This document shows, one piece after another, positions 9,616 through 51,042 of a DNA stretch of 64,000 nucleotides. Under the pieces are notes generated by a model, which ran no database searches, was not told the DNA's origin, and saw only the letters and a list, made by a program, of their open reading frames with translations. Made by a program: the position numbers and the translations under genes. The stretch is from Chloroflexota bacterium (lineage in GTDB: Bacteria; Chloroflexota; Limnocylindria; Limnocylindrales; CSP1-4), in NCBI GenBank assembly GCA_021787395.1, contig JAJYLZ010000008.1, positions 11,290 through 75,289 of the forward strand, read 5' to 3'. Each line of letters begins with the position of its first letter. The first letter of the stretch is position 1.

Positions 9616-11004
9616 CTACCTCCCCTTGCCCAGCGGTCGCGCCTGGTCGCGCGAGACCGTCGTGCCGCCCACGACCGACGGCCTCGAGGCGATGGGCGCC
9701 TCGAGGCCCATCGACGGCGCCACCGTGGTGGCGTGCGTCACGGCGGCGCCCCGGCGCGCGGTCCCGAGCGACGTCCCCGCGAGGATCACGCCCAGCCGCT
9801 CCAGCGAGGCGAGCGTGCCGGCGGGCAGGAAGTCGTCGATGTACGGGAAGGCGGCCTTCATGCCCGCCGCCAGCGGCTGGTAGCCGGGGGCCGACGCGAG
9901 CGGGTTGAGCCAGACCAGGCGGTGGCAGTTGCGCCGCAGGCGCGCGGTCTCCGCGGCCACCAGCGAGGGGTCGCCGCGGTCCCAGCCGTCCGACACCACG
10001 ATCACCACGCCGCTCGTCCGCAGCGTCCGGCGCGCCCAGTTGTGGTTGAACTGCCGGAAGCTCTCCCCGATCCGCGTGCCGCCCGCCCAGTCGGTCACCG
10101 TGTCGGCCACCCGGGCGAGGGCGCGGTCGCGGTCGCGGTCCTTCATCAGCCGCGTGACCCGGGTGAGCCTCGTGCCGAACACGAACGACTCGGTGCGGAC
10201 GTCGTTCTCGCGCGCCAGCGCCTGGACGAAGCGCAGCAGCAGCCTCGAGTGGCGCTCCATCGAGCCCGAGATGTCGCACAGGACCACGAGCTGCCGGGGC
10301 TCCTTGACCGGTCGGCTCCACACCCAGTCGGTCAGCTCGCCCGTGGCGAGGTTGCGCCGGTACATGGCCCGCGGGGCGAGCCGCCGCCCGTGCGGGTGGA
10401 GCTCGTGGCGGCGCGTCCGCCGCCGCTCCAGCCGCGGCTTGAGCAGGTCCACGAAGCGCTCGGCGTCACGGAGCTCGGCGCCCGTCATGCGGTCGAAGTC
10501 GCGGTGGCGGAGGGCCTCGCCGCGGGACCAGGCGTCGGGCGAGATCGTCTCGCCGTCCACCTGCGCCCCGTCCTCCACATCGACCGTCTCCTGCACGCCC
10601 ATCCGCGCGACGTCGGCCAGCGTGGCCTCGCGACCCTCCGCCGCCTCGTCGGACTCGCCGGGCTCGCCGTCGAGCTCGCGGTCCGCGTCCGGGTTCGGGG
10701 GCATCTCCGGACGGCCCGGCATCAGCTTGCGGCCGCGGCGCCGCCAGAACTGGGCGAACACGCGGTCGTACACCTCGCGGTCGTCCCGACGGCGCACGAA
10801 CAGGGCCTCGCCCGCGTCGTGGACCTGGTCGCGCCGGCCGAGGTCGACCAGGCTCAGCGCCCGGGCGAAGTCCATCGCCGCGCCCAGGTCCGCCGCGAGG
10901 CCGGCCGAGCGCAGCGCACGGCCGAACCCGACCGCCTCGGCGAGCAGGCGGCGCCCGTCCACGATCTCGCCCGTGGGCGCCTGGAGCAGCGGCGACTCGG
11001 TCAC
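9616..11004 (-). CDS. coxE: CoxE family VWA-domain protein
   Basis: MIDAS CDISGSM, FGTRLT, WAGGTRIG, SDGWDRG and WLNPL. Confidence 0.9.
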   Translation of the reverse strand: MTESPLLQAPTGEIVDGRRLLAEAVGFGRALRSAGLAADLGAAMDFARALSLVDLGRRDQVHDAGEALFVRRRDDREVYDRVFAQFWRRRGRKLMPGRPEMPPNPDADRELDGEPGESDEAAEGREATLADVARMGVQETVDVEDGAQVDGETISPDAWSRGEALRHRDFDRMTGAELRDAERFVDLLKPRLERRRTRRHELHPHGRRLAPRAMYRRNLATGELTDWVWSRPVKEPRQLVVLCDISGSMERHSRLLLRFVQALARENDVRTESFVFGTRLTRVTRLMKDRDRDRALARVADTVTDWAGGTRIGESFRQFNHNWARRTLRTSGVVIVVSDGWDRGDPSLVAAETARLRRNCHRLVWLNPLASAPGYQPLAAGMKAAFPYIDDFLPAGTLASLERLGVILAGTSLGTARRGAAVTHATTVAPSMGLEAPIASRPSVVGGTTVSRDQARPLGKGR

Positions 11005-11091
11005 GCCTACAGACTAGCCGACCGCCGGATTCGCGCTCGCGGGGCGGCGCGCGCCCGCGGGCGCGCGGTGCGGGACGCGCCGAGGGCCGGC

Positions 11092-12051
11092 TCAGGCCTG
11101 GGCGGCGGTCGCCTCGGCCAGGTACCGGCGCGCGTTGGCGCCCTTGACCGCGCGGATGTCCTCCTCGTACTTGAGGACCACGCCCAGCGTCTCGTCCACG
11201 GTGTCGCCGTCGAGCCCGGTGGCGCCGAGCGACAGCAGCGCGGCGGCCCAGTCGAGCGTCTCGGCGACGCCGGGCACCTTCGTCAGGTCGGCGGTGCGCA
11301 GCCGGTGGACGAAGGCGACGAGGTCGCGGGCGAGCGCGGCCGGCGCGTCCGGCACGCGGGTCGAGACGATCTCGAACTCCTTCTGGGCGGTGGGGTAGTC
11401 GATCCAGTGGTACAGGCAGCGGCGCTTGAGCGCGTCGTGGACCTCGCGCGTGCGGTTCGAGGTGAGGACCACTCGCGGCGCCTGCTCGGCCCGGATGGTG
11501 CCGATCTCGGGGACCGTGACCTGGAAGTCCGAGAGGATCTCGAGCAGGTACGCCTCGAACTCCTCGTCGGCGCGGTCGATCTCGTCGATGAGCAGCACCG
11601 GGGGCACGCCGTCGTGCGCCTCGAGCGCCTGGAGCAGCGGGCGCTTGAGCAGGAACTCGGGCCCGAAGATGTCGCGGGCGCTGGCCTTGGCGATCTCGCC
11701 GCGCGCCTCGAGCAGCCGGATCTCGAGCATCTGGCGCGGGTAGTTCCACTCGTAGACCGCGGTGTTGACGTCGAGGCCCTCGTAGCACTGGAGCCGGATC
11801 AGCCGGGCGCCGAGGCTGGCCGCGAGCACCTTGGCCAGCTCCGTCTTGCCCACGCCCGCCTCGCCCTCCAGCAGCAGCGGCCGCCCGAGTTCGAGCGCGA
11901 GGAAGACCGTGGTCGCCAGCGACCGCTCCGCGATGTAGCCCTGCTCCCGGAAGGCGCCCATCAGGCCATCGATCGACTGCATCGGGAGGGGCCGCGCGGC
12001 GCGGGCGGCGGTTCGGGAGGCGGCCGCTTGGGCGGCGGGCTGATCGGTCAT
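11092..12051 (-). CDS. coxD: CoxD/MoxR family AAA+ ATPase
   Basis: GEAGVGKT, LLIDEIDR, TSNRTREVHDALKRRC and PGVAETLDW. Confidence 0.92.
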   Translation of the reverse strand: MTDQPAAQAAASRTAARAARPLPMQSIDGLMGAFREQGYIAERSLATTVFLALELGRPLLLEGEAGVGKTELAKVLAASLGARLIRLQCYEGLDVNTAVYEWNYPRQMLEIRLLEARGEIAKASARDIFGPEFLLKRPLLQALEAHDGVPPVLLIDEIDRADEEFEAYLLEILSDFQVTVPEIGTIRAEQAPRVVLTSNRTREVHDALKRRCLYHWIDYPTAQKEFEIVSTRVPDAPAALARDLVAFVHRLRTADLTKVPGVAETLDWAAALLSLGATGLDGDTVDETLGVVLKYEEDIRAVKGANARRYLAEATAAQA

Positions 12052-12109
12052 GACGGCGATGCTACACCGGGCGGCGCTCCGGGTCGGCCGGGCGGCTGTC
12101 CCCCGCCGG

Positions 12110-13165
12110 CTACCCCCCGGGCGCGCCGAGGTCCCGCGCGTAGGCCGGGAAGCGGAACCGCTGCGAGCCGTCGAGGATCCCGCCGTGGGCCAGCCGTGCG
12201 ACGGTCGCGGCCGTCGCCGGATAGCCGGCCGCGAGCAGCGGCAGGAGCAGGTCCGCGGCGGTCGCGCGCGAGTAGGCGCCGCACGACGGCAGCCCCACCA
12301 CGGCGACCGGGCCGAGACGGGCGAGCCAGAGCATGGAGCCCGGGTGGGCTGGCACGCCGCGGCGGACGACGCGGCCGCCGAGCCGGTCGAGGGCGACGAA
12401 GAACGCGTCGCCGGGGTCGGTGCTGGCGCCGCCTGCGGTGAGCACGATCCGGGCCGCTCCCCTGCCCCGGGTGGCGGCCGCGAGCGCCGCCGCCACGGCA
12501 TCCGGGTCGTCGGGGACGTGGGCGATGCCGGCCAGCGTTCCGCCCAGGCCGGCCACGCGCGAGCAGATGGACGCCTCGAACCGGATGCGGTCCGCGTCCG
12601 AGAGTCGCTGCTTGACGACCACGGCGACCCGCGTCGGCCGGAATGGGCGCACGCGCACGACCGGCCCGCCCCGGCCCGCCGCGGCCTCCGCTCGGCGCAG
12701 GACGCCGTCGGGGACCAGGTGCGGCGCGACCTTCGCCGACGCCACGAGGTCGCCCGGCGCAACGATCCGGCCGGAGGCGACCGTGAACAGCTCGACCGGG
12801 TCGATCCGGTTGAGTCGGTCGAGCGCGGCCAGGCGGACCTCCACCACGCCGGCAGCAGCGGCCAGCAGGTCCACCCGCGACTGCACCGGCCCCTGCAGGG
12901 TGACGCCCGCCGCCGTCGGGTCGCCGGCCACGGCGGTGCTCGCAAGGCGAAGTGCCGCGTCGTCCTCGTGGACGTCGTCGGGCGCGGGGACGAGCACGGT
13001 GAAGGCCCGCCCCGGGGCTGCGCCCGCCAGCGCGTCGAGGTCCGCGGCCGTCAGCCGGCGGCCCTTGGCCCATCGCCGGCCCGCCACCACGAGGTCCCGG
13101 GCCAGCACGGCGCCGACGAGCCCGGCCGGCGACGGCCGGCCGGGCTCCAGGTGCTCGACGCGCAC
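12110..13165 (-). CDS. molybdopterin-binding (MoeA/CinA-like) protein
   Basis: AGGASTDPGD and GVPAHPGSMLWL; located inside the cox cluster; start uncertain. Confidence 0.75.
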   Translation of the reverse strand: MRVEHLEPGRPSPAGLVGAVLARDLVVAGRRWAKGRRLTAADLDALAGAAPGRAFTVLVPAPDDVHEDDAALRLASTAVAGDPTAAGVTLQGPVQSRVDLLAAAAGVVEVRLAALDRLNRIDPVELFTVASGRIVAPGDLVASAKVAPHLVPDGVLRRAEAAAGRGGPVVRVRPFRPTRVAVVVKQRLSDADRIRFEASICSRVAGLGGTLAGIAHVPDDPDAVAAALAAATRGRGAARIVLTAGGASTDPGDAFFVALDRLGGRVVRRGVPAHPGSMLWLARLGPVAVVGLPSCGAYSRATAADLLLPLLAAGYPATAATVARLAHGGILDGSQRFRFPAYARDLGAPGG

Positions 13166-13194
13166 GCCCGTCTGGATGCTGCCGGGTGGCGCGG

Positions 13195-14055
13195 TCAGCG
13201 GACTCGCGCCAGCGCCGCCCCGATCGCCCGCCTCGCGTGCACGACGGCCATCGCCGCACGGTACTCCCGCCCGGCGTGGATGTCCGCGTTGACCTCGCGG
13301 TCGCCGACGACCAGGGCCGCGGCGGCGGCCACCGCCTCGGGGGAGCCGGTGGTCCCGACCAGCGCGGCCTCGACCTCGCGGGCGCGGTACGGGTGGTCCG
13401 ACACGCCGGTCACCCCCACGCCCGCCCACTCGATCAGGCCCCCCGCGCCCAGGACCACCACGGCGGCGACCCCGGCGATCGGGTAGCCCGACGCCCGCTG
13501 CTCGAGCGACGCGTACGCCGACCCGGCGTCCGCGCGCGGGGCTGGCAGGATCACCGCGGCCAGGATCTCGTCGCGGGCGAGCGCCGTCGTGAACGCGCCC
13601 TGGAAGAAGCCGTCCACCGGGACGGTCCGCGACCCGGCGGCCGACTGCACCACGACCTCGGCGTCGAGCGCCAGCAGCGCCGCCGGGAGGTCGGACGCGG
13701 GGTCTGCGTGGGCCACGGCGCCGCCCACGGTGCCGCGGTTGCGGACCTGGACGTCGCCGATGCCCGGCAGCGCGTCGGCGACCACGCCGTAGCGCACGGC
13801 CGGCGAGTCCGCGAGCTCCGCGTACGTGGTGAGCGCGCCGACGGACAGCCGCCCGTCGTCGAGCCGGCGCACGCCCCGGAGCTCCGCGAGGCGCCCGATG
13901 TCCACCAGGCGGGCGGGCTGGGCCAGCCGCAGCTTCATCAGCGGCAGCAGGCTCTGGCCGCCGGCGATCACCTTGGCGCCCTCGTCGGAGGCGAGGATGC
14001 CGAGCGCGTCCTGCAGCGAGGAGGCCCTGGTGTACTCGAAGGCTGCCGGGATCAT
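13195..14055 (-). CDS. coxM: FAD-binding medium subunit, xanthine dehydrogenase/CODH family
   Basis: [13 protein letters not shown] and [16 protein letters not shown]. Confidence 0.93.
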
Positions 14056-16454
14056 GCCTGGCCTCCCTTGGCGCTCTGGATGGCGCTCCAGACCTTCTGC
14101 GCGGTGAACGGCATGTCGAGGTGGCGGATGCCTAGCGGGCTCAGCGCGTCGTTGACCGCGTTGGCCACGGCGGCCGTGGACGCGATGCAGCCGGCCTCGC
14201 CGACACCCTTGACCCCCAGCGGGTTGACCGGTGACGGCGTGACCGTCTCGTCGAGCTCGAAGCTGGGCAGCCACTCGGCGCGCGGCAGCGCGTAGTCGAG
14301 CAGCGAGCCGGAGAGCAGCTGCCCGTCGTCGTCGTAGACGGCCTCCTCCCACAGCGCCTGGCCGACGCCCTGGGCGATGCCCCCGTGCAGCTGGCCGTCC
14401 ACGATCATCGGGTTGATCTTCTTGCCCACGTCGTCCACCGCCACGTAGCGGACCAGTTCGGTGTTGCCCGTCTCCTCGTCCACCTCGACGACCGCGATGT
14501 GGGTGCCGAACGGGAACGTGCAGTTGTCGGTGTCGTGGTAGGCGGTCTCGTCGAGGTACGGCTCCATGCCCGGCGGCGTGTCGAACGCGAGGTCGAGCGC
14601 GAACGCGATCTCCTGGAGCGTCTTCTTCTTGTCGGGCGAGCCCTTCACGCGGTACTCGGCGCCCTCGACCTCGATGTCGTCCACGTTGGCCTCGAGCATG
14701 TGGGCCGCGTACCGGCGGGCCTTGTCGCGGATCTTGGCGGCCGCCTTGACGGCGGCGCCGGTGCCCACGTTGGACGTGCGCGACCCGTAGGAGCCGTAGC
14801 CGAACGGCGTGCCCTGGGTGTCCGAGTGCTGGACGACGATGTCCTCCATCGGGACGCCCAGCTCGTGGCTGACGATCTGCGCGAAGGTGGTCTCGTGGCC
14901 CTGCCCCTGGGGCTGGGTGCCCATCGTGACCACGACCTTGCCGGTCAGGTGGACCTTGATGTTGGACGACTCCCACATCGCGGCGCCCCAGCCCTCGCCC
15001 ACGGCGCCGATCCACTTGGACGGCGCGACGCCGCAGACCTCGATGTAGGTGGACAGGCCGACCCCCAGCAGCTTGCCGCGCGCCCTCGCCTCGGCCTTCC
15101 TGGCCGCCATGTCGGCGTAGCCGGCCATCGCGAGCGCCTTGTCCATCGCGGGCTCGTAGTTGCCCGAGTCGATGTACAGCTTGCTGCCGTTGACCGCGGT
15201 CAGGAGGCCGGACGGGTTGTCGTAGGGGAAGGCGTCGGGCGGCAGGAAGTTGCGCCGCCTGACCTCGGCGGGGTCGATGCCCAGCTCGTCGGCGACGAGG
15301 TCCATCGCCCGCTCGACCACGTAGGTCGCCTCCGGGCGGCCCGCGCCGCGGTAGGCGTCCACGAACGTCGTGTTGGTGTAGACGCCGGTCACCTCGCAGT
15401 GGACCGCGGGGATCTTGTACGGGCCTGACAGGATGCGCCCGTAGAGCGTGGTGGGGATGCCGGGGCCGATCGTGGACAGGCGCCCGCCGAGGTTGGCGAG
15501 CGTGCGGACCCGCAGGCCCTTGACCTCGCCCTGCCTGGTGGCCGCCACGTCGACGTAGGTGATGTGGTCCCGGCCGTGGATGGTGGAGCCGAAGCTCTCG
15601 CGCCTGGTCTCGACCCACTTCACCGGGCGGCCGCCGACGAGCCTGCTCGCGAACAGCGACAGCGCCATGTCGGCGTAGCAGTAGATCTTGGAGCCGAAGG
15701 CGCCGCCCACGTCAGGGCTGATGCACCGGATCTTCTGCTCGGGCACGCCCATCACGAAGGCGGCCAGCAGCAGGCGCTGGATGTGCGGCGTCTGGCTGGA
15801 CATCCAGATCGTGTACTCGTCGGTGCCCGGGTTGTACCAGCCGATGTCACCCCGGACCTCCATCGGGTTGGGGATCAGCCGGTGGTTCACGAGGCGCTGG
15901 CTGACCACCACCTCCGCGCCGGCGAACGCCGCGTCGGTGGCGGCCCTGTCGCCCACCTGCCAGTCGAACACGCGGTTGTTGGGGGCGTTCTCGTGGAGCT
16001 GCGGGGCGCCGTCGGCCAGCGCCTTCTCGGCGTCGGTGACGGCCGGCAGCGGCTCCCACTCGACCTGGATCAGCTCCAGCGCGTCCACCGCCTGGGCGGC
16101 CGTCTCGGCGACCACGGCGGCCACGCCCTCGCCGGTCCACTTGACCGAGTCGGTGGCGAGCGCGCGGGGCGTGTTGACGTTGTTCTGGATGCCCGACGCG
16201 CCGCCGGCGGGCCAGGCCATGGGCAGCGGGTTGTACGGGATGTCGGCGCCGGTGATCACCGCCACCACGCCGGGCGCCGCCTTGGCGGCCGAGGTGTCGA
16301 TGGACCGGATGTTGGCGTGCGCGTAGGGGCTGCGCAGGATGGCGAGGTGGGCCATGCCGGGCAGCTTGATGTCGTCGAGGTAGCGGCCCTTGCCGCTGAT
16401 GAAGCGCGGGTCCTCCACCCGCTTGACCGGGGCGCCGAGGACGTCGGTGGCCAT
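14052..16454 (-). CDS. coxL: molybdopterin-binding large subunit, form II CoxL-like
   Basis: [15 protein letters not shown], active-site loop [16 protein letters not shown] and KGVGE. Confidence 0.93.
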
Positions 16455-16465
16455 CTCCCGCCCTC

Positions 16466-16954
16466 CTACGCCGACGCGGCGGCGCCGCGCATCACGGCGG
16501 CGGCCTCGCGGACGGCGGCCACGATGTTGTGGTAGCCGGTGCAGCGGCAGATGTTGCCGGCGATCGCGTGCCGGATCTCCGCCTCGCTCGGGTCGGGGTT
16601 GCGGGCCACCAGGTCGGCGGCCGCCATGATCATGCCCGGCGTGCAGAACCCGCACTGCAGGCCGTGCTTGTCCCAGAACGCCTGCTGGATCGGGTGGAGG
16701 GAGCCCACCTGGCCGAGGCCCTCGATCGTGGTCACCGACGTCCCGTCGGCCTGCGCCGCGAGCACCGTGCAGCTCTTCACGGCCCGACCGTCCACGTGGA
16801 CGGTGCAGGCGCCGCACTGGCTGGTGTCGCACCCGACGTGGGTGCCGGTGAGCTCCAGGTCCTCCCGCAGCATCGTGACCAGGAGGGTGCGGGGTTCGAC
16901 GTCCACCTCCCGGTGTTCGCCGTTCACTTCGAGCGCGACGTGCAGCTCGGCCAC
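16466..16954 (-). CDS. coxS: 2x[2Fe-2S] small subunit
   Basis: [11 protein letters not shown] and QCGFC..CRC; GAAGGAGG RBS before GTG 16954. Confidence 0.93.
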
Positions 16955-17647
16955 CAGGACGACCTCCTTCTGCCGTGTCCGGCATGGCCGCGGGTCCCGC
17001 CGCGGCCGACAGGGGTGACGCTGATCGTCCGCCGGGAAGCCGCGGGCGGGGCCCGGGCGTCGACGGGTGGTGCATGGGTCCGACGCGGCCAGGAGGCAGT
17101 GGCCCCCGGATGGTGGGGGAACACCGGGCGCAGGCGCGGCACCCCGGATGGTGGCAGGGTGGCGGGAATGCTGCAAGCGGGGGTGTCAGCGGGTGGCTGG
17201 ACCCGGGGAGAGGTCCCGGAGGGGTGGCTGGACCGGCGGTCCAGACGCGAGGCACGAGGGCGCCCGGGGCTGGACTCCCGCTCCAGCCCAGCGCGTGCGC
17301 GGGCCGTCCGGCATGTCCGCCGCTGGACCCCCGCGCCAGCCGGCGGCCGACGACGGACAGATGTTGGGACTGGCAGTCCAGCGCCCTCCCAGGCGGCGAC
17401 GCCGCAGCGCCGCTCCCCGGCGGCGGGGACGAGCGCGCTCCCCGGCGTCGCCCGGCGTCGCCACGGACCGCCTGCCCCGGGCAGGGGCTGGTGCGGGTTC
17501 TGCGGAGGCGTTCGGGCGGGTCGGCTCTTCATCTGCGCCGGAGCGGGGGTCATGCTGCCCCCGGCGCCGGGGGATTGGGCCGCGGGGCCCCGCGCCCGGG
17601 CGACCGGAAGAGGGGCCGGCGCCGAGGCGTCCCGGAGGGAGAGGGAG

Positions 17648-45911: not shown

Positions 45912-46688
45912 TCAGCCGGCGGGACCCGGAACCTCCGCGGCCGGCGGCGAGAGGAGCGGCGAGGCGGGCGCGCTCGGCGAGGGCGTCGCGCTGGGCGCGG
46001 GCGACACCATCGACGCCCCGCCGATGTCGTGGCACAGGACGCAGGTGTCGTCACCGCGCAGCGCATGGTCGATCGGCAGCGCCCCCACGCTCGACGACTG
46101 GTGGCAGTCGCGGCACTTGAGGTTCTGGGGGTCCGGGTGCGGCTTGATCGGCGGCGGGGACGGGTTGGGCTTGTGGCACAGCTCGCAGTCGTTCTGGTTC
46201 CGCCCGACCATCGAGGTCGGCAGGTGGGCGACGGAGCCGTGGCAGTCGAGGCAGGGCTTGTTGAGCGCGGCGTGCGCCTGGGTGATCGCCGGTCCCTGCA
46301 CGGGCTCCTTGTGGCAGTTGGTGCACTCGCTCTCCGGGATGCCGTCGTGGCCCGGCGCCGTCCTGCCCAGCTCCTCGTTGGTGTGGCAGGTCAGGCAGGC
46401 CGTGAAGCCGGCCAGCGGGTGGCCCATGGCGGGGATCGTCTTGACGGCCGCTGAGCCGCCGCCCTCGTGGCACAGCACGCACTGCGCCGAGGTGGGGATG
46501 TGCGCGATGCCCATCTGGAACAGGCCCCCCGACGGCGAGGCCGCGGCGGCGCCCGTGTCGGCCGGGACCGAGGATCGGGTCGGGATCAGCTGGAGCCAGT
46601 TGGCGACCATCAGCGCGGCCAGCATGGCCACCATCGTGAGGTTCAGCAGGATCAGGACGCGGAGCGTCCGGTCCAGTCGCCGTCTCAT
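45912..46688 (-). CDS. membrane-anchored multiheme cytochrome c (7 CxxCH)
   Basis: CVLCH, CLTCH, CTNCH, CLDCH, CELCH, CRDCH, CVLCH; N-terminal hydrophobic helix; ATGA overlap with the protease gene. Confidence 0.9.
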   Translation of the reverse strand: MRRRLDRTLRVLILLNLTMVAMLAALMVANWLQLIPTRSSVPADTGAAAASPSGGLFQMGIAHIPTSAQCVLCHEGGGSAAVKTIPAMGHPLAGFTACLTCHTNEELGRTAPGHDGIPESECTNCHKEPVQGPAITQAHAALNKPCLDCHGSVAHLPTSMVGRNQNDCELCHKPNPSPPPIKPHPDPQNLKCRDCHQSSSVGALPIDHALRGDDTCVLCHDIGGASMVSPAPSATPSPSAPASPLLSPPAAEVPGPAG

Positions 46689-47233
46689 GCCGTCGCCCCC
46701 TTGGGGCTGCCGCCACCCGGCCCACCGGCAGTCGCCACGAGTCCGCCCAGCTGGCTCAGGTGGTCCAGCACCGCCGCGACCGCCCGGGGGAGCGCGGCCG
46801 CCACCGGCTCGGAGAGGCCGGCGCCCAGCTCCGTCTTGCCGACTTGGACGCCCACCAACGCCACCGACTGCGGCAGCCAGCCCATGAGCCGGGCCACGGC
46901 CAGCAGCTCCCCCACGCCGCCGGGGATGCAGCGGCCCCATGCGGCGCCGGCGGCCTGGATCTCGGCGCCGCGGAGCACGGTCACGGTGCCGGCCGGCTGG
47001 TCGAGGTCCACCGCGTCGATCAGCAGCAGACTCCGCGCGCCCTCCACGTCGGCCAGCAGGTCCACGCCCAGCGTTCCGCCGTCCACGAGCCGCGTGGCCT
47101 CCGGCAGGGCGCCCGGGTCGCGCTCCGCGATGGCGCGCAGCGCCTCCACGGCCCGCACGCCGACGCCGTCGTCCCCGAGCAGGACGTTGCCCACCCCGAT
47201 CACGACAGCCGGGCCCTCGGCGTCAGGGATCAT
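46685..47233 (-). CDS. hyaD: hydrogenase maturation endopeptidase
   Basis: GVGNVLLGDDGVG, DGGT and IDA. Confidence 0.9.
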   Translation of the reverse strand: MIPDAEGPAVVIGVGNVLLGDDGVGVRAVEALRAIAERDPGALPEATRLVDGGTLGVDLLADVEGARSLLLIDAVDLDQPAGTVTVLRGAEIQAAGAAWGRCIPGGVGELLAVARLMGWLPQSVALVGVQVGKTELGAGLSEPVAAALPRAVAAVLDHLSQLGGLVATAGGPGGGSPKGATA

Positions 47234-48030
47234 GCGTCGGCCCTCTTGGCTGCCTGCTCGAGCACCTCGGGGCCGCCGTCCCGGGACTCCACGACCTCCT
47301 CCCGGGTCGGGAACTTGTAGCCGGTGAACATGCTCGTGACCACGCCCACGTTCTCGATGTGGTCGACGAGGACGCAGCTGTACACGTGGAACAGCGCGAT
47401 GGCCAGGATCAGCCACATCGTCAGGTGGTGGACCAACCGCAGCATCTGCGGGCCGAGCAGCTCGCGCAGCCAGGCGAAGGCCGTGGCGCCCGGCTCGGCG
47501 CCCATCAGCCCGTCGAGCGCGAAGCCCGTGACGGTCTCCACCAGCAGCAGCGCGAACAGGGCGAGGTATGCCGCCGCCGCCAGCTGGTTGTGGCCGAGGA
47601 CCTTGGGGATCTCGCTGCGGACGAAGCCGTAGAACCCGGCCTGGCGGAAGAGCTCGGTGAACTGCGTGCGGTTGGTCGGGATGAACGCAGTCCAGCGGAC
47701 GAAGCGGTTGCCCGCCAGCAGGTAGACCGTGCGCACGACGCCCGAGACCAGGAACGTCAGGGCGGTGATGATGTGGACCAGCCGGATGGTCGTCATGACG
47801 TTGCCGCCCGGCGGGATGAGGAACGGATCCGCGATGTAGCCCCCGGTGAGGCTCAGGGTCACGATGCAGATCGCCGTGACCCAGTGCGTGATGCGGACCG
47901 GCGCCTGCCAGATGTAGACGGCCACCCGGTCGTTGGGCCGCTGCACCGCGTGATGGGCGGCACCGGCACCGTGGGCGGACGCGCCGGTCGGGGCCGCCGG
48001 AGCGGCCAGGGGCTCGTCGAGCGCGGTCAT
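47230..48030 (-). CDS. hyaC: Ni/Fe-hydrogenase cytochrome b subunit
   Basis: VRITHW, RLVH, GHN, RLVHH and FHVY; 4 TM helices. Confidence 0.92.
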   Translation of the reverse strand: MTALDEPLAAPAAPTGASAHGAGAAHHAVQRPNDRVAVYIWQAPVRITHWVTAICIVTLSLTGGYIADPFLIPPGGNVMTTIRLVHIITALTFLVSGVVRTVYLLAGNRFVRWTAFIPTNRTQFTELFRQAGFYGFVRSEIPKVLGHNQLAAAAYLALFALLLVETVTGFALDGLMGAEPGATAFAWLRELLGPQMLRLVHHLTMWLILAIALFHVYSCVLVDHIENVGVVTSMFTGYKFPTREEVVESRDGGPEVLEQAAKRADA

Positions 48031-49802
48031 CGGATGTCCTCCCCGACTCGGGCCACCACCTCGGCGGGCGTGTCCCGACGGGGGCTGAACACGTGCGCGG
48101 CGCAGGCGGCGCAGGGCGCGAACGAGTGGACGACGCGGAGCGCCTCGAGCGGGCGCTGGGCGTCTGCGATCGGCGTGCCGACGAGCGCGGTCTCGATGGG
48201 GCCCCGGAGGTTCGACCCGTCGCGCGGCGAGAGGTTCCAGGTCGAGGCGTCGATCACCTGGTAGTCAGCGACGACCGCGTCGCGGATCGTGACCCAGTGG
48301 GCGACCGTGCCCCGCGGCCCCTCGCCCAGCGAGAACCCCTTGGCCTCCGACGGCCAGGAGCCGGGGTCCCAGTAGGTGACGTCGGCGACGGCGACGTCAC
48401 CGGCGCCCAGGTTGGCGCGCAGGTCCCCGAGCCAGAGCGGCAGCTGCTGCACGACCACCTCGGCCTCTGCGGACCGGGCCAGCAGCCGGCCCACGACGCC
48501 GCCCAGCTTGTCAACGGTCAGGTTCAGGGAGTTCACCCGCTGGGCGATCGCGGCCGTCAGGTCGGCCTGCCCGTTGGCCAGGCCGACGAGGACCCGCGCC
48601 AAGGGGCCAACCTCCATGGGCACGCCCCGGTAGCGCGGCGCCTTGACCCACGAATACGCCGTGGCACCCTCGAGGCTCTGGATCGGCAGGGCCAGGCCCG
48701 GCCAGGCTGGCGTGGTCTGCCCGGCGCTACCGCTGAGCAGGGTGTCGTTGCCGCCCGAGTGGAGGTACCAGGAGCTGGTCACGGTCTCGGTGAACTCGGC
48801 GTTCTCCACGCGCTGGGACGCCTCGAGGTTGCCCTGGTCGAGGCGACCCGTCGGGAACAACGGCTCCGGCGTGTCCTTGGCCCCCTGGGGGAACTCCCCG
48901 GCCGACAGGCACCCGCCGGGACCCGCCCCGAGTCCCACATACTCCGGGTAGGCGGCGGCCAGCAGGGCGACGTCGGGCACGAAGGCCCCCAGCACGAAGT
49001 CGCGGGCGCTGACCATCTGGCCGCTCATGAAACCGTAACCGTCGGGGCTCAACGCCTCCGGGGAGTTGGCGTCCGGGACCTGCGGGTGGTCCCGCCCGGA
49101 CGCCCCCGACGGGCCTCCCCACGGTGGCGCCACCGCCATGCCGCCCACGAGGTAGGTCTGCGGATGCGGGTCCTTGCCGCCGAGCAGCGTCTGGATGCGC
49201 ATGAACTCCCGCTGCCAGCCGATCGCCTCGAGCATGTGGGCGACCAGCAGGAGGTCCTGCTCGGGCGACAGGCGGTAGGCCGGGTGCCCCCACCAGCCGT
49301 TGCCCAGGACACCCGGGTGGCCGTCCGCCAGCTCGGCCCTCAGCCGGTCCTGGACCTTGGCGAAGTCGCTGGCCGCCTGTCCCTGGCGCTGCGCCTGTGA
49401 CGCCGCCAGCTTCGCGGTCGCGGCGGGGTCCGCGGTCGTGGCGGCCTGGACGTCCACCCAGTCCTGCAGCTGCGACAGGTAGAAGTCCATGACGTGGTCG
49501 CGGACGAGCATGGTCCCGGCGAGCAGGTTGCGGATGTGCCGGGCGTTGGTCGGGATGGTGATCGCGAGCGCGTTCTCGACGGCCCGGACCGACGCCAGGG
49601 CATGGACGCCCGTGCAGGTGCCGCAGATGCGCTGCGCCAGGAGCCAGGCGTCCCGCGGGTCCCGGCCCCGCAGGCTGAGCTCCAGCCCTCGGAACGTCAT
49701 CCCCGAGGCCCAGGCGTCCGAGACGACGCCGCCGTCCACGGCGAGCTCGACGCGGGCGCTCCCGCCGGCGCGGGTCAACGGGTCAATCGCAAGCCTCGGC
49801 AC
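48027..49802 (-). CDS. hyaB: group 1 [NiFe]-hydrogenase-like large subunit, divergent active-site shell
   Basis: L1 RICGTCTGVH, FRGLE, GKDPH, YSWVKAPR, EGPRG, L2 SFAPCAACAAH plus a 21-aa cleavable tail. Confidence 0.9.
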   Translation of the reverse strand: MPRLAIDPLTRAGGSARVELAVDGGVVSDAWASGMTFRGLELSLRGRDPRDAWLLAQRICGTCTGVHALASVRAVENALAITIPTNARHIRNLLAGTMLVRDHVMDFYLSQLQDWVDVQAATTADPAATAKLAASQAQRQGQAASDFAKVQDRLRAELADGHPGVLGNGWWGHPAYRLSPEQDLLLVAHMLEAIGWQREFMRIQTLLGGKDPHPQTYLVGGMAVAPPWGGPSGASGRDHPQVPDANSPEALSPDGYGFMSGQMVSARDFVLGAFVPDVALLAAAYPEYVGLGAGPGGCLSAGEFPQGAKDTPEPLFPTGRLDQGNLEASQRVENAEFTETVTSSWYLHSGGNDTLLSGSAGQTTPAWPGLALPIQSLEGATAYSWVKAPRYRGVPMEVGPLARVLVGLANGQADLTAAIAQRVNSLNLTVDKLGGVVGRLLARSAEAEVVVQQLPLWLGDLRANLGAGDVAVADVTYWDPGSWPSEAKGFSLGEGPRGTVAHWVTIRDAVVADYQVIDASTWNLSPRDGSNLRGPIETALVGTPIADAQRPLEALRVVHSFAPCAACAAHVFSPRRDTPAEVVARVGEDIR

Positions 49803-49803
49803 G

Positions 49804-51042
49804 TCAGCGCCCCTCCCGCCCGACGGGGGCGTCAGGGCGACCGTCAGCCTCGTCGGCGGCCCCGTGCTCGGCCGGCGCGAGGCCGACTGTCGCAGCGGGC
49901 TCGGACCGCCTCCCCGCATCGCCGACCGCCGGCGGGAGCGGGCCCAGCGGGACGGCGGCGGCTCGCTCGTGGGCAGCGATCATGCGCCGGCGCTTGAACC
50001 GCACCCCCATGCCCACCGCGTGGACGCCCATCACGCCCGCCACCCCGCCCAGGAGCGCGCCGCCGACCATGTCCACGGTCACGTTGGGGAGGAACGGGAC
50101 GGGCGAGGGCAGGCGCTTGTAGGCCGGGCCCATCGCGTTCCAGAAGCTCGGCGTCATGCAGCCCACGCAGCCGTGCCCGGCGCGGACGTTCCAGCTGGTC
50201 TTCTCGCCGTACCTGACGGTCGGGCAGTTGCCCATCGTCTCGGGGCCCTTGCAGCCCAGCTTGTACAGGCACCAGCCCCTCTGGGCGCCCTCATCGCCCC
50301 ACTCGGTGGCGAACTCCCCGAACTCGAAGTGCGGCCGCCGCTCGCACTGGTTGTGGATGAGGTCGCCGTAGGCGGCCAGGGGCCGGCTCGCGAGGTCGGC
50401 TGGGGGCAGCTCGTTGAAGGTGAGGTAGTGGACGATGACCGCCGCCAGGTTCACCGGGTTCACCGGGCAGCCGGGCAGGGCCATGTACCGGGCGCCCGCC
50501 AGGGCCCGCACGCCGCCCGCGCCCGTGGGGTTGGAGCCCGCGGCCGGGGCGCCGCCGTCGCAGGCGCAGGAGCCGACCGCGATGGTGGCCAGCGCCCCGG
50601 CGCACACCTCCCGCACGACATCGGCGGCCGGGCGACCGCCGATCAGGCAGTAGGCGCCCGAGGCGCCGCTCGGGATCGAGCCCTCGACGACCGCGAAGTA
50701 GCCGTTCCGGTAGCGGTCCATGGCGCTCGTGCGCGCCAGCTCGGCGTCACCGCCCGCCACCCCGAGGAACGCGTCGTGGTACTGGATGTCCAGGACGTCG
50801 AGGAACAGCGCGACGGTGTCAGGGTCCGACGACCGCAGGAACGCCTCGGTGTCGCCGCCGCAGGCCTGGCCGCGGATCCAGATGACCGGAAGGCGCTTGC
50901 TGCCCTCGACGGCGGCGGCGATCCGCGGAGCGTAGGACAGGGGCAGGGCGAGGGCCGCCGCCATGGCGGCCGAGAACTGGAGGAAGGATCGCCGGGTCAT
51001 CCCCCGCCGCACCAGCGCGGCGTACAGCCCGTCGTCCTGCAT
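49804..51042 (-). CDS. hyaA: group 1 [NiFe]-hydrogenase-like small subunit (Tat signal, C-terminal TM anchor)
   Basis: TRRSFLQ, ACGGD, GSCAC, PGCP, HNQCERR, CLYKLGCKGP, NC and GHGCVGC. Confidence 0.92.
   Translation of the reverse strand: MQDDGLYAALVRRGMTRRSFLQFSAAMAAALALPLSYAPRIAAAVEGSKRLPVIWIRGQACGGDTEAFLRSSDPDTVALFLDVLDIQYHDAFLGVAGGDAELARTSAMDRYRNGYFAVVEGSIPSGASGAYCLIGGRPAADVVREVCAGALATIAVGSCACDGGAPAAGSNPTGAGGVRALAGARYMALPGCPVNPVNLAAVIVHYLTFNELPPADLASRPLAAYGDLIHNQCERRPHFEFGEFATEWGDEGAQRGWCLYKLGCKGPETMGNCPTVRYGEKTSWNVRAGHGCVGCMTPSFWNAMGPAYKRLPSPVPFLPNVTVDMVGGALLGGVAGVMGVHAVGMGVRFKRRRMIAAHERAAAVPLGPLPPAVGDAGRRSEPAATVGLAPAEHGAADEADGRPDAPVGREGR

Follow-up and report, generated by a model that had tools for sequence, protein, structure and literature searches.

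What is a heptahaem c-type cytochrome doing at the end of a [NiFe] hydrogenase operon? The question is raised by a 64,000-nt stretch of contig JAJYLZ010000008.1 (assembly GCA_021787395.1; Chloroflexota, Limnocylindrales), referred to here as the window. Five genes on its minus strand follow one another in the order small subunit, large subunit, cytochrome b, maturation protease and cytochrome c. On balance, we lean slightly towards the view that the cytochrome c is a dedicated extra redox subunit at the membrane module, where it would carry electrons between an extracytoplasmic partner and that end of the hydrogenase chain which lies on the outer face. Its gene occupies 45912–46688, and translation of the minus strand gives a clean open reading frame (ORF) of 258 amino acids (aa), P0001; the plus-strand reading of this interval was rejected because its translation is nonsense. 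The features of the operon are listed here, with TAT standing for twin-arginine translocation.

49804–51042, minus strand: [NiFe] hydrogenase small subunit, 412 aa; TAT signal, C-terminal membrane helix with His, proximal-cluster CxxC reading CGGD
48027–49802, minus strand: [NiFe] hydrogenase large subunit, 591 aa from a GTG start; RICGTC and PCAACAAH metal motifs, cleavable C-terminal tail
47230–48030, minus strand: HyaC-type dihaem cytochrome b, 266 aa; 4-base overlap between its start and the large-subunit stop
46685–47233, minus strand: HyaD/HybD-type maturation protease, 182 aa; 4-base overlap with both neighbours
46696–46702, minus strand: Shine–Dalgarno-like AAGGGGG, read directly, within the protease gene and seven bases 5' of the cytochrome ATG
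45912–46688, minus strand: heptahaem c-type cytochrome P0001, 258 aa plus stop

A first-pass annotation of this stretch had described an ATGA overlap between the protease and cytochrome genes, and this is what the sequence reads: the cytochrome ATG lies at 46688–46686 and the protease TGA at 46687–46685. ORF coordinates give the same 4-base overlap between large subunit and cytochrome b (48030/48027) and between cytochrome b and protease (47233/47230), the last three junctions being alike. The cytochrome gene is thus the translationally coupled final gene of the operon.

To ask whether this arrangement extends beyond the window, we collected 445 homologues of the cytochrome (E <= 1e-3, among word-sharing candidates) and kept one genome per species, which left 79 loci. 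Cytochrome b and protease genes precede the cytochrome in 60 loci, and cytochrome b with a weak protease match in three more. The protease is present up to the contig end in two, and cytochrome b lies directly before the cytochrome, without a protease, in 12. One locus (L079) has no upstream DNA, and at another (L066) there is no hydrogenase. Hydrogenase genes therefore lie directly 5' of the cytochrome in 77 of the 78 informative loci. The 12 protease-less loci are the deep-branching, most divergent ones (47–52% large-subunit identity). They nevertheless keep the cytochrome, so the conserved core consists of small subunit, large subunit, cytochrome b and cytochrome c. At several distant loci the next gene is convergent, and the cytochrome therefore closes the operon. 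The reverse check gave the same picture: all four long contigs picked by large-subunit homology carry the cytochrome downstream. A lack of co-conservation, which the first-pass annotation had named as refuting its reading, is thus not what we see: cytochrome and hydrogenase lineage go together in both directions. These data show that small subunit, large subunit, cytochrome b and the cytochrome have been inherited as a set, even where large-subunit identity falls below 50%.

Some loci depart from the common layout. At L066 (7847–8762), the cytochrome is preceded only by 47 residues left over from the signal peptide of the small subunit (68% identical), and the locus looks like one from which the hydrogenase genes were deleted and the cytochrome spared. 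L052 (287–8780) appears to carry the block from large subunit through cytochrome b and protease to cytochrome c twice in tandem, both copies being about equally similar to the query; either the whole operon was duplicated recently or long-read assembly produced an artefact. Four deep loci have a second anchored paralogue 5' of the small subunit (L068:2938–3756, L070:2652–3227, L071:3598–4119 and L073:3553–4050), so that the operon is flanked by cytochromes at both ends. This paralogue has 5–7 CxxCH motifs and 37–44% identity to the window cytochrome, and is separated from the small subunit by no more than ∼20 bases in L070, L071 and L073 and by ∼230 bases in L068. At L090 (8959–11098) and L091 (8956–11089), a MerR/TOBE regulator and a molybdate-type ATP-binding cassette transporter lie between the cytochrome and a phosphoribosyltransferase (PRT) gene. 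The downstream neighbour is therefore outside the conserved unit.

What kind of cytochrome is this? Seven CxxCH motifs were found, with the first Cys at residues 70, 98, 122, 146, 168, 192 and 216. The resulting spacings of 28, 24, 24, 22, 24 and 24 residues are essentially the ∼22–27 first reported. An additional His stands ahead of each motif (H63, H90, H114, H139, H155, H184 and H208, at distances of 7, 8, 8, 7, 13, 8 and 8 residues, respectively). The earlier description, which placed such a His 5–11 residues before every motif, fits six of the seven (7–8 residues), the exception being H155 at 13. Conservation was assessed in an alignment of 142 sequences, comprising 141 orthologues and one paralogue. 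Six of the seven motifs are invariant, and in the first motif the second Cys (C73) is conserved at >=90%. Five of the seven extra His residues are likewise invariant, with H63 and H155 at >=90%. At these predicted sites, the conserved His residues would be enough for bis-His ligation of all seven haems. The 223 six-frame window ORFs of at least 150 aa (84,031 residues) contain CxxCH seven times, always within the cytochrome ORF. Because every such motif falls in one ORF, a chance origin of the seven is excluded.

The protein divides into four regions, for which entropy is the mean column entropy of the alignment and pLDDT the predicted local distance difference test score of the AlphaFold model.

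46581–46688, minus strand: codons 1–36, Arg-rich N-terminus and signal-anchor helix; entropy 1.36 bits
46515–46580, minus strand: codons 37–58, linker, rich in small residues and variable in sequence and length; entropy 2.23 bits, 0 columns conserved at >=90%
46023–46514, minus strand: codons 59–222, haem domain of 164 residues; entropy 0.78 bits, 85/164 columns conserved at >=90%
45915–46022, minus strand: codons 223–258, Pro/Ser/Ala-rich tail, unconserved in sequence and length; entropy 2.37 bits, occupancy 0.64, pLDDT <50

The haem domain is dense, with ∼23 residues per haem, and the variable linker of ∼20 aa suggests that it may be tethered and mobile. Three Pfam models are matched above their gathering thresholds: Cytochrome_C7 (PF14522, 40.8 versus 24.8), Cytochrom_c3_2 (PF14537, 29.0 versus 25) and Paired_CXXCH_1 (PF09699, 24.4 versus 20.6). 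These scores, with the dense CxxCH motifs and sufficient His, place the protein by sequence among the class III multihaem cytochromes c. Models for other families gave scores far below cut-off, namely NrfH (TIGR03153, 22.6 versus 134.2 bits) and the decahaem DmsE/MtrA (TIGR03508, 30.3 versus 192.2 bits). Because it misses both by a wide margin, the cytochrome belongs to neither the NapC/NirT nor the MtrA family. Its layout also differs from that of NapC/NirT/NrfH, where a tetrahaem core sits tight on the N-terminal helix; here, seven haems follow a variable linker of ∼20 residues.

The N-terminal membrane helix that had been proposed is recovered in the AlphaFold model, where residues 2–31 form one helix with pLDDT >90. 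Five Arg precede it, and the haem domain is placed outside the membrane because of them (positive-inside rule). As far as topology signals show, the protein would have type II topology, with the N-terminus inside and the haems outside. Conserved positions of the anchor (L9, R10, L12, I13, N16, V19/V20, L23, A24, M27/V28 and W31) line up along a single face of the helix. The moment of conservation is highest at 100 degrees per residue (permutation p = 5e-5), and Asn16, in the middle of the membrane span, has a conservation of 98%. No His is present in this helix. From the single conserved face we infer specific helix–helix packing in the membrane, for which the most economical partners would be cytochrome b or the small-subunit anchor.

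We then compared the hydrogenase subunits with known enzymes. The small subunit matches Pfam TAT_signal, Oxidored_q6 and NiFe_hyd_SSU_C, scores 361 bits with TIGR00391 and aligns to 1h2a_S; the large subunit matches Pfam NiFeSe_Hases (530 bits). Among solved structures, the large subunit comes closest to the Allochromatium vinosum enzyme (3myr_B, group 1e; 461 bits), with Hyd-5 and Hyd-1 next. By subgroup, solved relatives rank 1e, then 1d, 1c and 1b, in a comparison whose references did not include group 1f. Cytochrome b matches Pfam Ni_hydr_CYTB, exceeds the TIGR02125 cut-off (126.9 versus 121.5 bits) and retains the His positions of E. coli HyaC (4gd3_A). Because these haem-ligand His residues are kept, the quinone route looks intact. 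The protease matches Pfam HycI and scores 114.7 bits with TIGR00072.

These parts make up a group 1 operon of the HyaABCD type. As in E. coli Hyd-1 (HyaABCD), Cupriavidus HoxKGZ and Wolinella HydABC, there is an anchored TAT small subunit, a large subunit with four metal-binding Cys, a HyaC-type cytochrome b with its His ligands and a specific HyaD-type protease, in the same order. Unlike those operons, which have no c-type cytochrome gene, the window operon is that set plus one gene. The subunits themselves also differ, scoring far below the cut-offs of the Hyd-1 and Hyd-2 equivalog models. The canonical four- or six-Cys ligation of the proximal cluster is missing, since CTGC is replaced by CGGD in the window (small-subunit residues 58–67), leaving the CxxC without its second Cys; in the relatives tallied, CGG is followed by Asn, Glu or Asp. 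In addition, the residue before the medial-cluster GHxCxGC is neither Pro nor Cys. The lineage seems, judging from these residues, to have rebuilt its iron–sulfur (FeS) chain. We regard a membrane-bound [NiFe] uptake hydrogenase specific to Limnocylindria as the best explanation for the enzyme.

The large subunit has peculiarities of its own. It reads HSFAPCAACAAH, with Ala in place of the Asp found in the usual DPCxxCxxH; A, D, S, N or V occurs at this position among relatives. Across 52 loci, it is the fastest-evolving protein of the operon, with a mean pairwise distance of 0.43 compared with 0.36 for the cytochrome, 0.33 for the small subunit and 0.24 for cytochrome b. Such fast evolution is unusual for a catalytic subunit.

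If the cytochrome is a dedicated subunit, the conserved face of its anchor would pack on the membrane module (cytochrome b and/or the small-subunit anchor), and the compact haem rod would swing on the ∼20-residue linker. Electrons would enter at the outer-face end of the hydrogenase chain, either from the distal FeS cluster or from the outer haem b. They could then pass on to an acceptor outside the cytoplasm, for which a terminal oxidase, a further cytochrome, minerals and humic matter are candidates. Electrons from H2 would thereby gain a haem c exit beside the reduction of menaquinone by cytochrome b. The first-pass annotation had proposed much the same, namely that a haem wire leads electrons outward alongside cytochrome b; such a path may exist, whether it works in parallel with the quinone pool or in series with it. 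Its suggestion of an extracellular partner finds no specific support in a tethered membrane cytochrome with a 164-residue haem domain. Its premise that standard group 1 operons deliver electrons through cytochrome b alone is too simple. Group 1a and 1b hydrogenases use cytochrome c3, group 1c enzymes HybA/HybB, and group 1e enzymes Isp.

Several observations weigh against assigning the cytochrome this role. Its putative contact with the hydrogenase is our reading of the sequences. AlphaFold2 runs on the cytochrome with 24 and then 142 sequences gave pLDDT values of 47 and 61, with confidence for the anchor helix only, and a Foldseek search of the model against the PDB returned zero matches. 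As cytochrome b appears canonical, the enzyme would have no obvious need of a second outlet. Synteny is decisive in the distant loci alone, because the flanking PRT and HtrA genes are syntenic too among closer relatives. Pairwise-distance correlations between the cytochrome and the small subunit, large subunit and cytochrome b (r = 0.74–0.79, versus 0.76–0.88 among the subunits themselves) exceed that with the neighbouring HtrA (r = 0.56; partial r with the hydrogenase proteins, 0.58–0.69), but are supportive only, because the pairs are non-independent and carry no p-value. Finally, none of the metatranscriptome contigs described below (150–250 nt) crosses a gene junction, including that between protease and cytochrome.

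To place the cytochrome in a wider family, we searched 1.84 billion representative sequences with its profile. This gave 499 matches at E <= 1e-3, 29 of them at E <= 1e-30. The nearest out-group homologues are 35–40% identical. P0249, P0250 and P0255 keep the N-terminal anchor and have seven or eight CxxCH; P0250 is 35–38% identical, with all seven motifs collinear with those of the window cytochrome. P0250 (in L086–L088) and P0255 (in L085) are the last gene of a four-gene module, in the order multihaem cytochrome c of ∼205–225 residues, Fer4_11 iron–sulfur protein, NrfD membrane protein and anchored cytochrome. The start of the anchored cytochrome gene overlaps or abuts the NrfD stop. NrfD is fused to the cytochrome in P0254, P0264 (40% identical over 167 residues) and P0331; the contigs of P0249 are too short for gene context. 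Within the stretches examined around these NrfD-linked relatives, no hydrogenase was found. Because out-group relatives directly follow NrfD or are fused to it, the cytochrome family appears habitually to partner a quinone-interacting membrane subunit, which would be NrfD in the out-group and cytochrome b here. Anchor helices of the out-group lack the Asn-bearing face, which is consistent with an anchor that, in the hydrogenase lineage, may have come to suit another partner.

Representative NrfD modules lie at L080:6579–10040 (with the last two genes fused), L085:4767–8897 and L086:5013–8813. They often adjoin a GerE-type response regulator, and the L085 module is near hypA. Two candidates for long fusions, P0243 and P0279, were rejected as mis-framed gene calls in high-G+C DNA. 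Giant multihaem proteins (P0244 and others) each match the profile many times over. They share with the query the repeated H-x-CxxCH unit common to both, and were set aside as not being specific relatives. Profile comparison with PDB sequences gave only insignificant, CxxCH-driven matches, including ActA chains (E = 0.13–0.33).

Which characterized systems come closest? In our best reading, by analogy, the b/c pair would be functionally nearest to CbcBA and CbcL of Geobacter. In CbcBA of G. sulfurreducens, the cytochrome b is dihaem and akin to that of hydrogenases, and its partner is a heptahaem cytochrome c anchored in the membrane (10.1101/2021.04.15.440034); CbcL is a HydC/FdnI-like dihaem b fused to nine c haems. 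The window pairs the same two kinds of gene, a hydrogenase-type dihaem b beside an anchored heptahaem c, and the two are directly adjacent in the 12 protease-less loci. The likeness drawn here is one of description. The anchor of CbcA is C-terminal and proposed to bear a b-haem His ligand (10.1101/2021.04.15.440034), whereas that of the window cytochrome is N-terminal and free of His. Nor do the Geobacter systems have an attached hydrogenase. The NrfD modules of the out-group relatives contain the same kinds of parts as Cbc4 (CbcSTU). They also resemble alternative complex III and Qrc of Desulfovibrio. Unlike the window operon, the NrfD/FeS/multihaem modules include neither hydrogenase nor cytochrome b, and their anchors lack the conserved Asn face.

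Two further comparisons concern the cytochrome alone. In the group 1a/1b systems of Desulfovibrio, a class III bis-His multihaem cytochrome takes electrons from a periplasmic [NiFe] hydrogenase, and the window protein matches the Pfam c3 and c7 families. Desulfovibrio c3 is soluble, tetrahaem and usually encoded outside the operon, and its partner enzymes have neither cytochrome b nor a small-subunit anchor. The archaeal MmcA, which is associated with the Rnf complex rather than with a hydrogenase, can be compared with the window cytochrome by description only. This heptahaem cytochrome c of Methanosarcina acetivorans is presented as a conduit for intracellular and extracellular electron transport (PMC10153276). 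A full-text literature search did not find the window arrangement described.

We considered other roles for the cytochrome. It is possible, though doubtful, that the enzyme is a hybrid from which electrons leave at the membrane surface in two ways, either through cytochrome b to menaquinone or through a seven-haem wire that bypasses the quinone pool and reaches extracytoplasmic acceptors. An NrfD-type quinone module would have been the source of the wire, and the FeS chain would have been rebuilt with the proximal Cys changed to Asn, Asp or Glu. Such acceptors might be cytochrome c oxidase or other cytochromes, as well as humics and oxides of Fe or Mn. The main rival to a dedicated subunit, which we judge unlikely, puts the two cytochromes in series: the hydrogenase would reduce menaquinone, and cytochrome b with the heptahaem c would act as a CbcBA/CbcL-like or NapC-like menaquinol:acceptor oxidoreductase, so that one operon supplies the quinol exit and no contact with the hydrogenase is needed. 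This would suit the nearest relatives, which reside in NrfD/FeS quinone modules or are fused to NrfD, and the precedent of CbcBA and CbcL, menaquinol oxidases in which 7 or 9 c haems accompany a cytochrome b of the hydrogenase type. It would also suit the position of the cytochrome directly after cytochrome b where the protease is absent, the weak NrfH match and the NapC-like label that one source gives a homologue. That NrfH match, however, is 22.6 bits against a cut-off of 134.2, and a haem domain whose quinol site lies close to the membrane is not easily reconciled with the variable ∼20-residue linker before the first haem. Moreover, a single cytochrome b that both reduces and re-oxidizes quinone would be futile unless regulated.

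Alternatively, the seven haems could store electrons, whose back-flow through the FeS chain would reactivate the [NiFe] site or reduce O2, offsetting the unusual proximal cluster in an aerobic or microaerobic lineage. The loss of the second proximal Cys to Asn, Glu or Asp across the lineage, the aerobic-type CoxL/CoxE-like genes in the window and literature describing the lineage as at least facultatively aerobic are all consistent with such a buffer. We nonetheless think it improbable, given that no known O2-tolerant hydrogenase employs a c-type cytochrome in this way and that out-group relatives serve quinone modules rather than protection. Flow could also be inward, with the cytochrome gathering electrons from an external donor or periplasmic cytochrome and passing them to cytochrome b and quinone (as in MtoC) or to the hydrogenase for H2 production. 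CbcL/MtoC-type b+c cytochromes do occur in metal reducers and metal oxidizers alike, and the sample is from mine drainage. The marks of the enzyme (TAT export, HyaC-type cytochrome b, group 1 affinities), however, are those of an uptake hydrogenase, and no iron-oxidation genes were seen in the scanned window genes, which makes this direction very improbable. There is equally little probability that an unrelated respiratory cytochrome sits at the operon end by chance. Synteny of the flanking housekeeping genes in close relatives and the hydrogenase-free L066 locus would allow for a passenger. Against it stand the ATGA coupling, the retention of the cytochrome in deep loci with different flanks and even without the protease, its apparent duplication with the operon in L052, and its presence on every large-subunit contig sampled.

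Are these genes expressed in nature? Wetland and soil metatranscriptomes contain contigs of 150–250 nt that are 85–90% alike to window positions 46151–46400 and 47229–47807, in the cytochrome and cytochrome b genes, respectively. Relatives of both genes are probably transcribed, although carry-over of DNA is possible. Metatranscriptomes of the same mine-drainage study contain essentially nothing of the window.

The surroundings of the operon were also analyzed. Upstream, beyond a 430-bp gap, is an aldehyde dehydrogenase gene. Downstream, the PRT gene begins after 27 bases and is followed by genes for a PMT-type glycosyltransferase, ApbE and HtrA. A promoter and terminator scan of the locus detected no site, a result of little weight at 75% G+C. 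On the minus strand at 9616–17528, the window encodes a CoxL-like molybdopterin dehydrogenase (a 1158-aa ORF with Ald_Xan_dh_C, MoCoBD_1 and MoCoBD_2) and a CoxE-type VWA protein; these may belong to a cluster for aerobic carbon monoxide dehydrogenase or a related dehydrogenase in the same organism. Pfam scanning, which covered most but not all window genes, revealed no hyp, cytochrome-maturation or oxidase genes among those scanned. A regular expression for the Trp-rich motif of CcsA/CcmC/CcmF (WGxxWxWD) had no match in the window or in the relatives' loci examined, which is uninformative by itself. Named homologues come from Candidatus Limnocylindrales or Chloroflexota metagenome-assembled genomes, and DNA of the window is represented in mine-drainage metagenomes.

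Limnocylindria (Ellin6529, CSP1-4) are reported to be abundant and uncultured in soils and fresh water, and their published H2 metabolism is framed around high-affinity group 1h/1l enzymes. A preprint on the Chloroflexi supergroup treats the hydrogenases and multihaem cytochromes of the lineage separately, and counts multihaem proteins only if they have >20 motifs. If the operon does represent a further lineage of membrane-bound hydrogenase, equipped with a haem c subunit of its own, this would change how H2 oxidation is wired to respiration in Limnocylindria, and a monoderm cell could feed electrons from H2 straight into cytochrome oxidases, or into minerals and humics. Should the enzyme have two exits, it would found a hydrogenase subgroup of its own, and H2 would drive electron export in a new way in monoderms that are reported to be abundant in soil. 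The operon would amount to a natural fusion of H2:quinone oxidoreductase and CbcBA-like bc cytochrome modules, making electron branching at a hydrogenase cytochrome b testable. The family also offers a compact seven-haem scaffold, at ∼23 residues per haem, for structural work.

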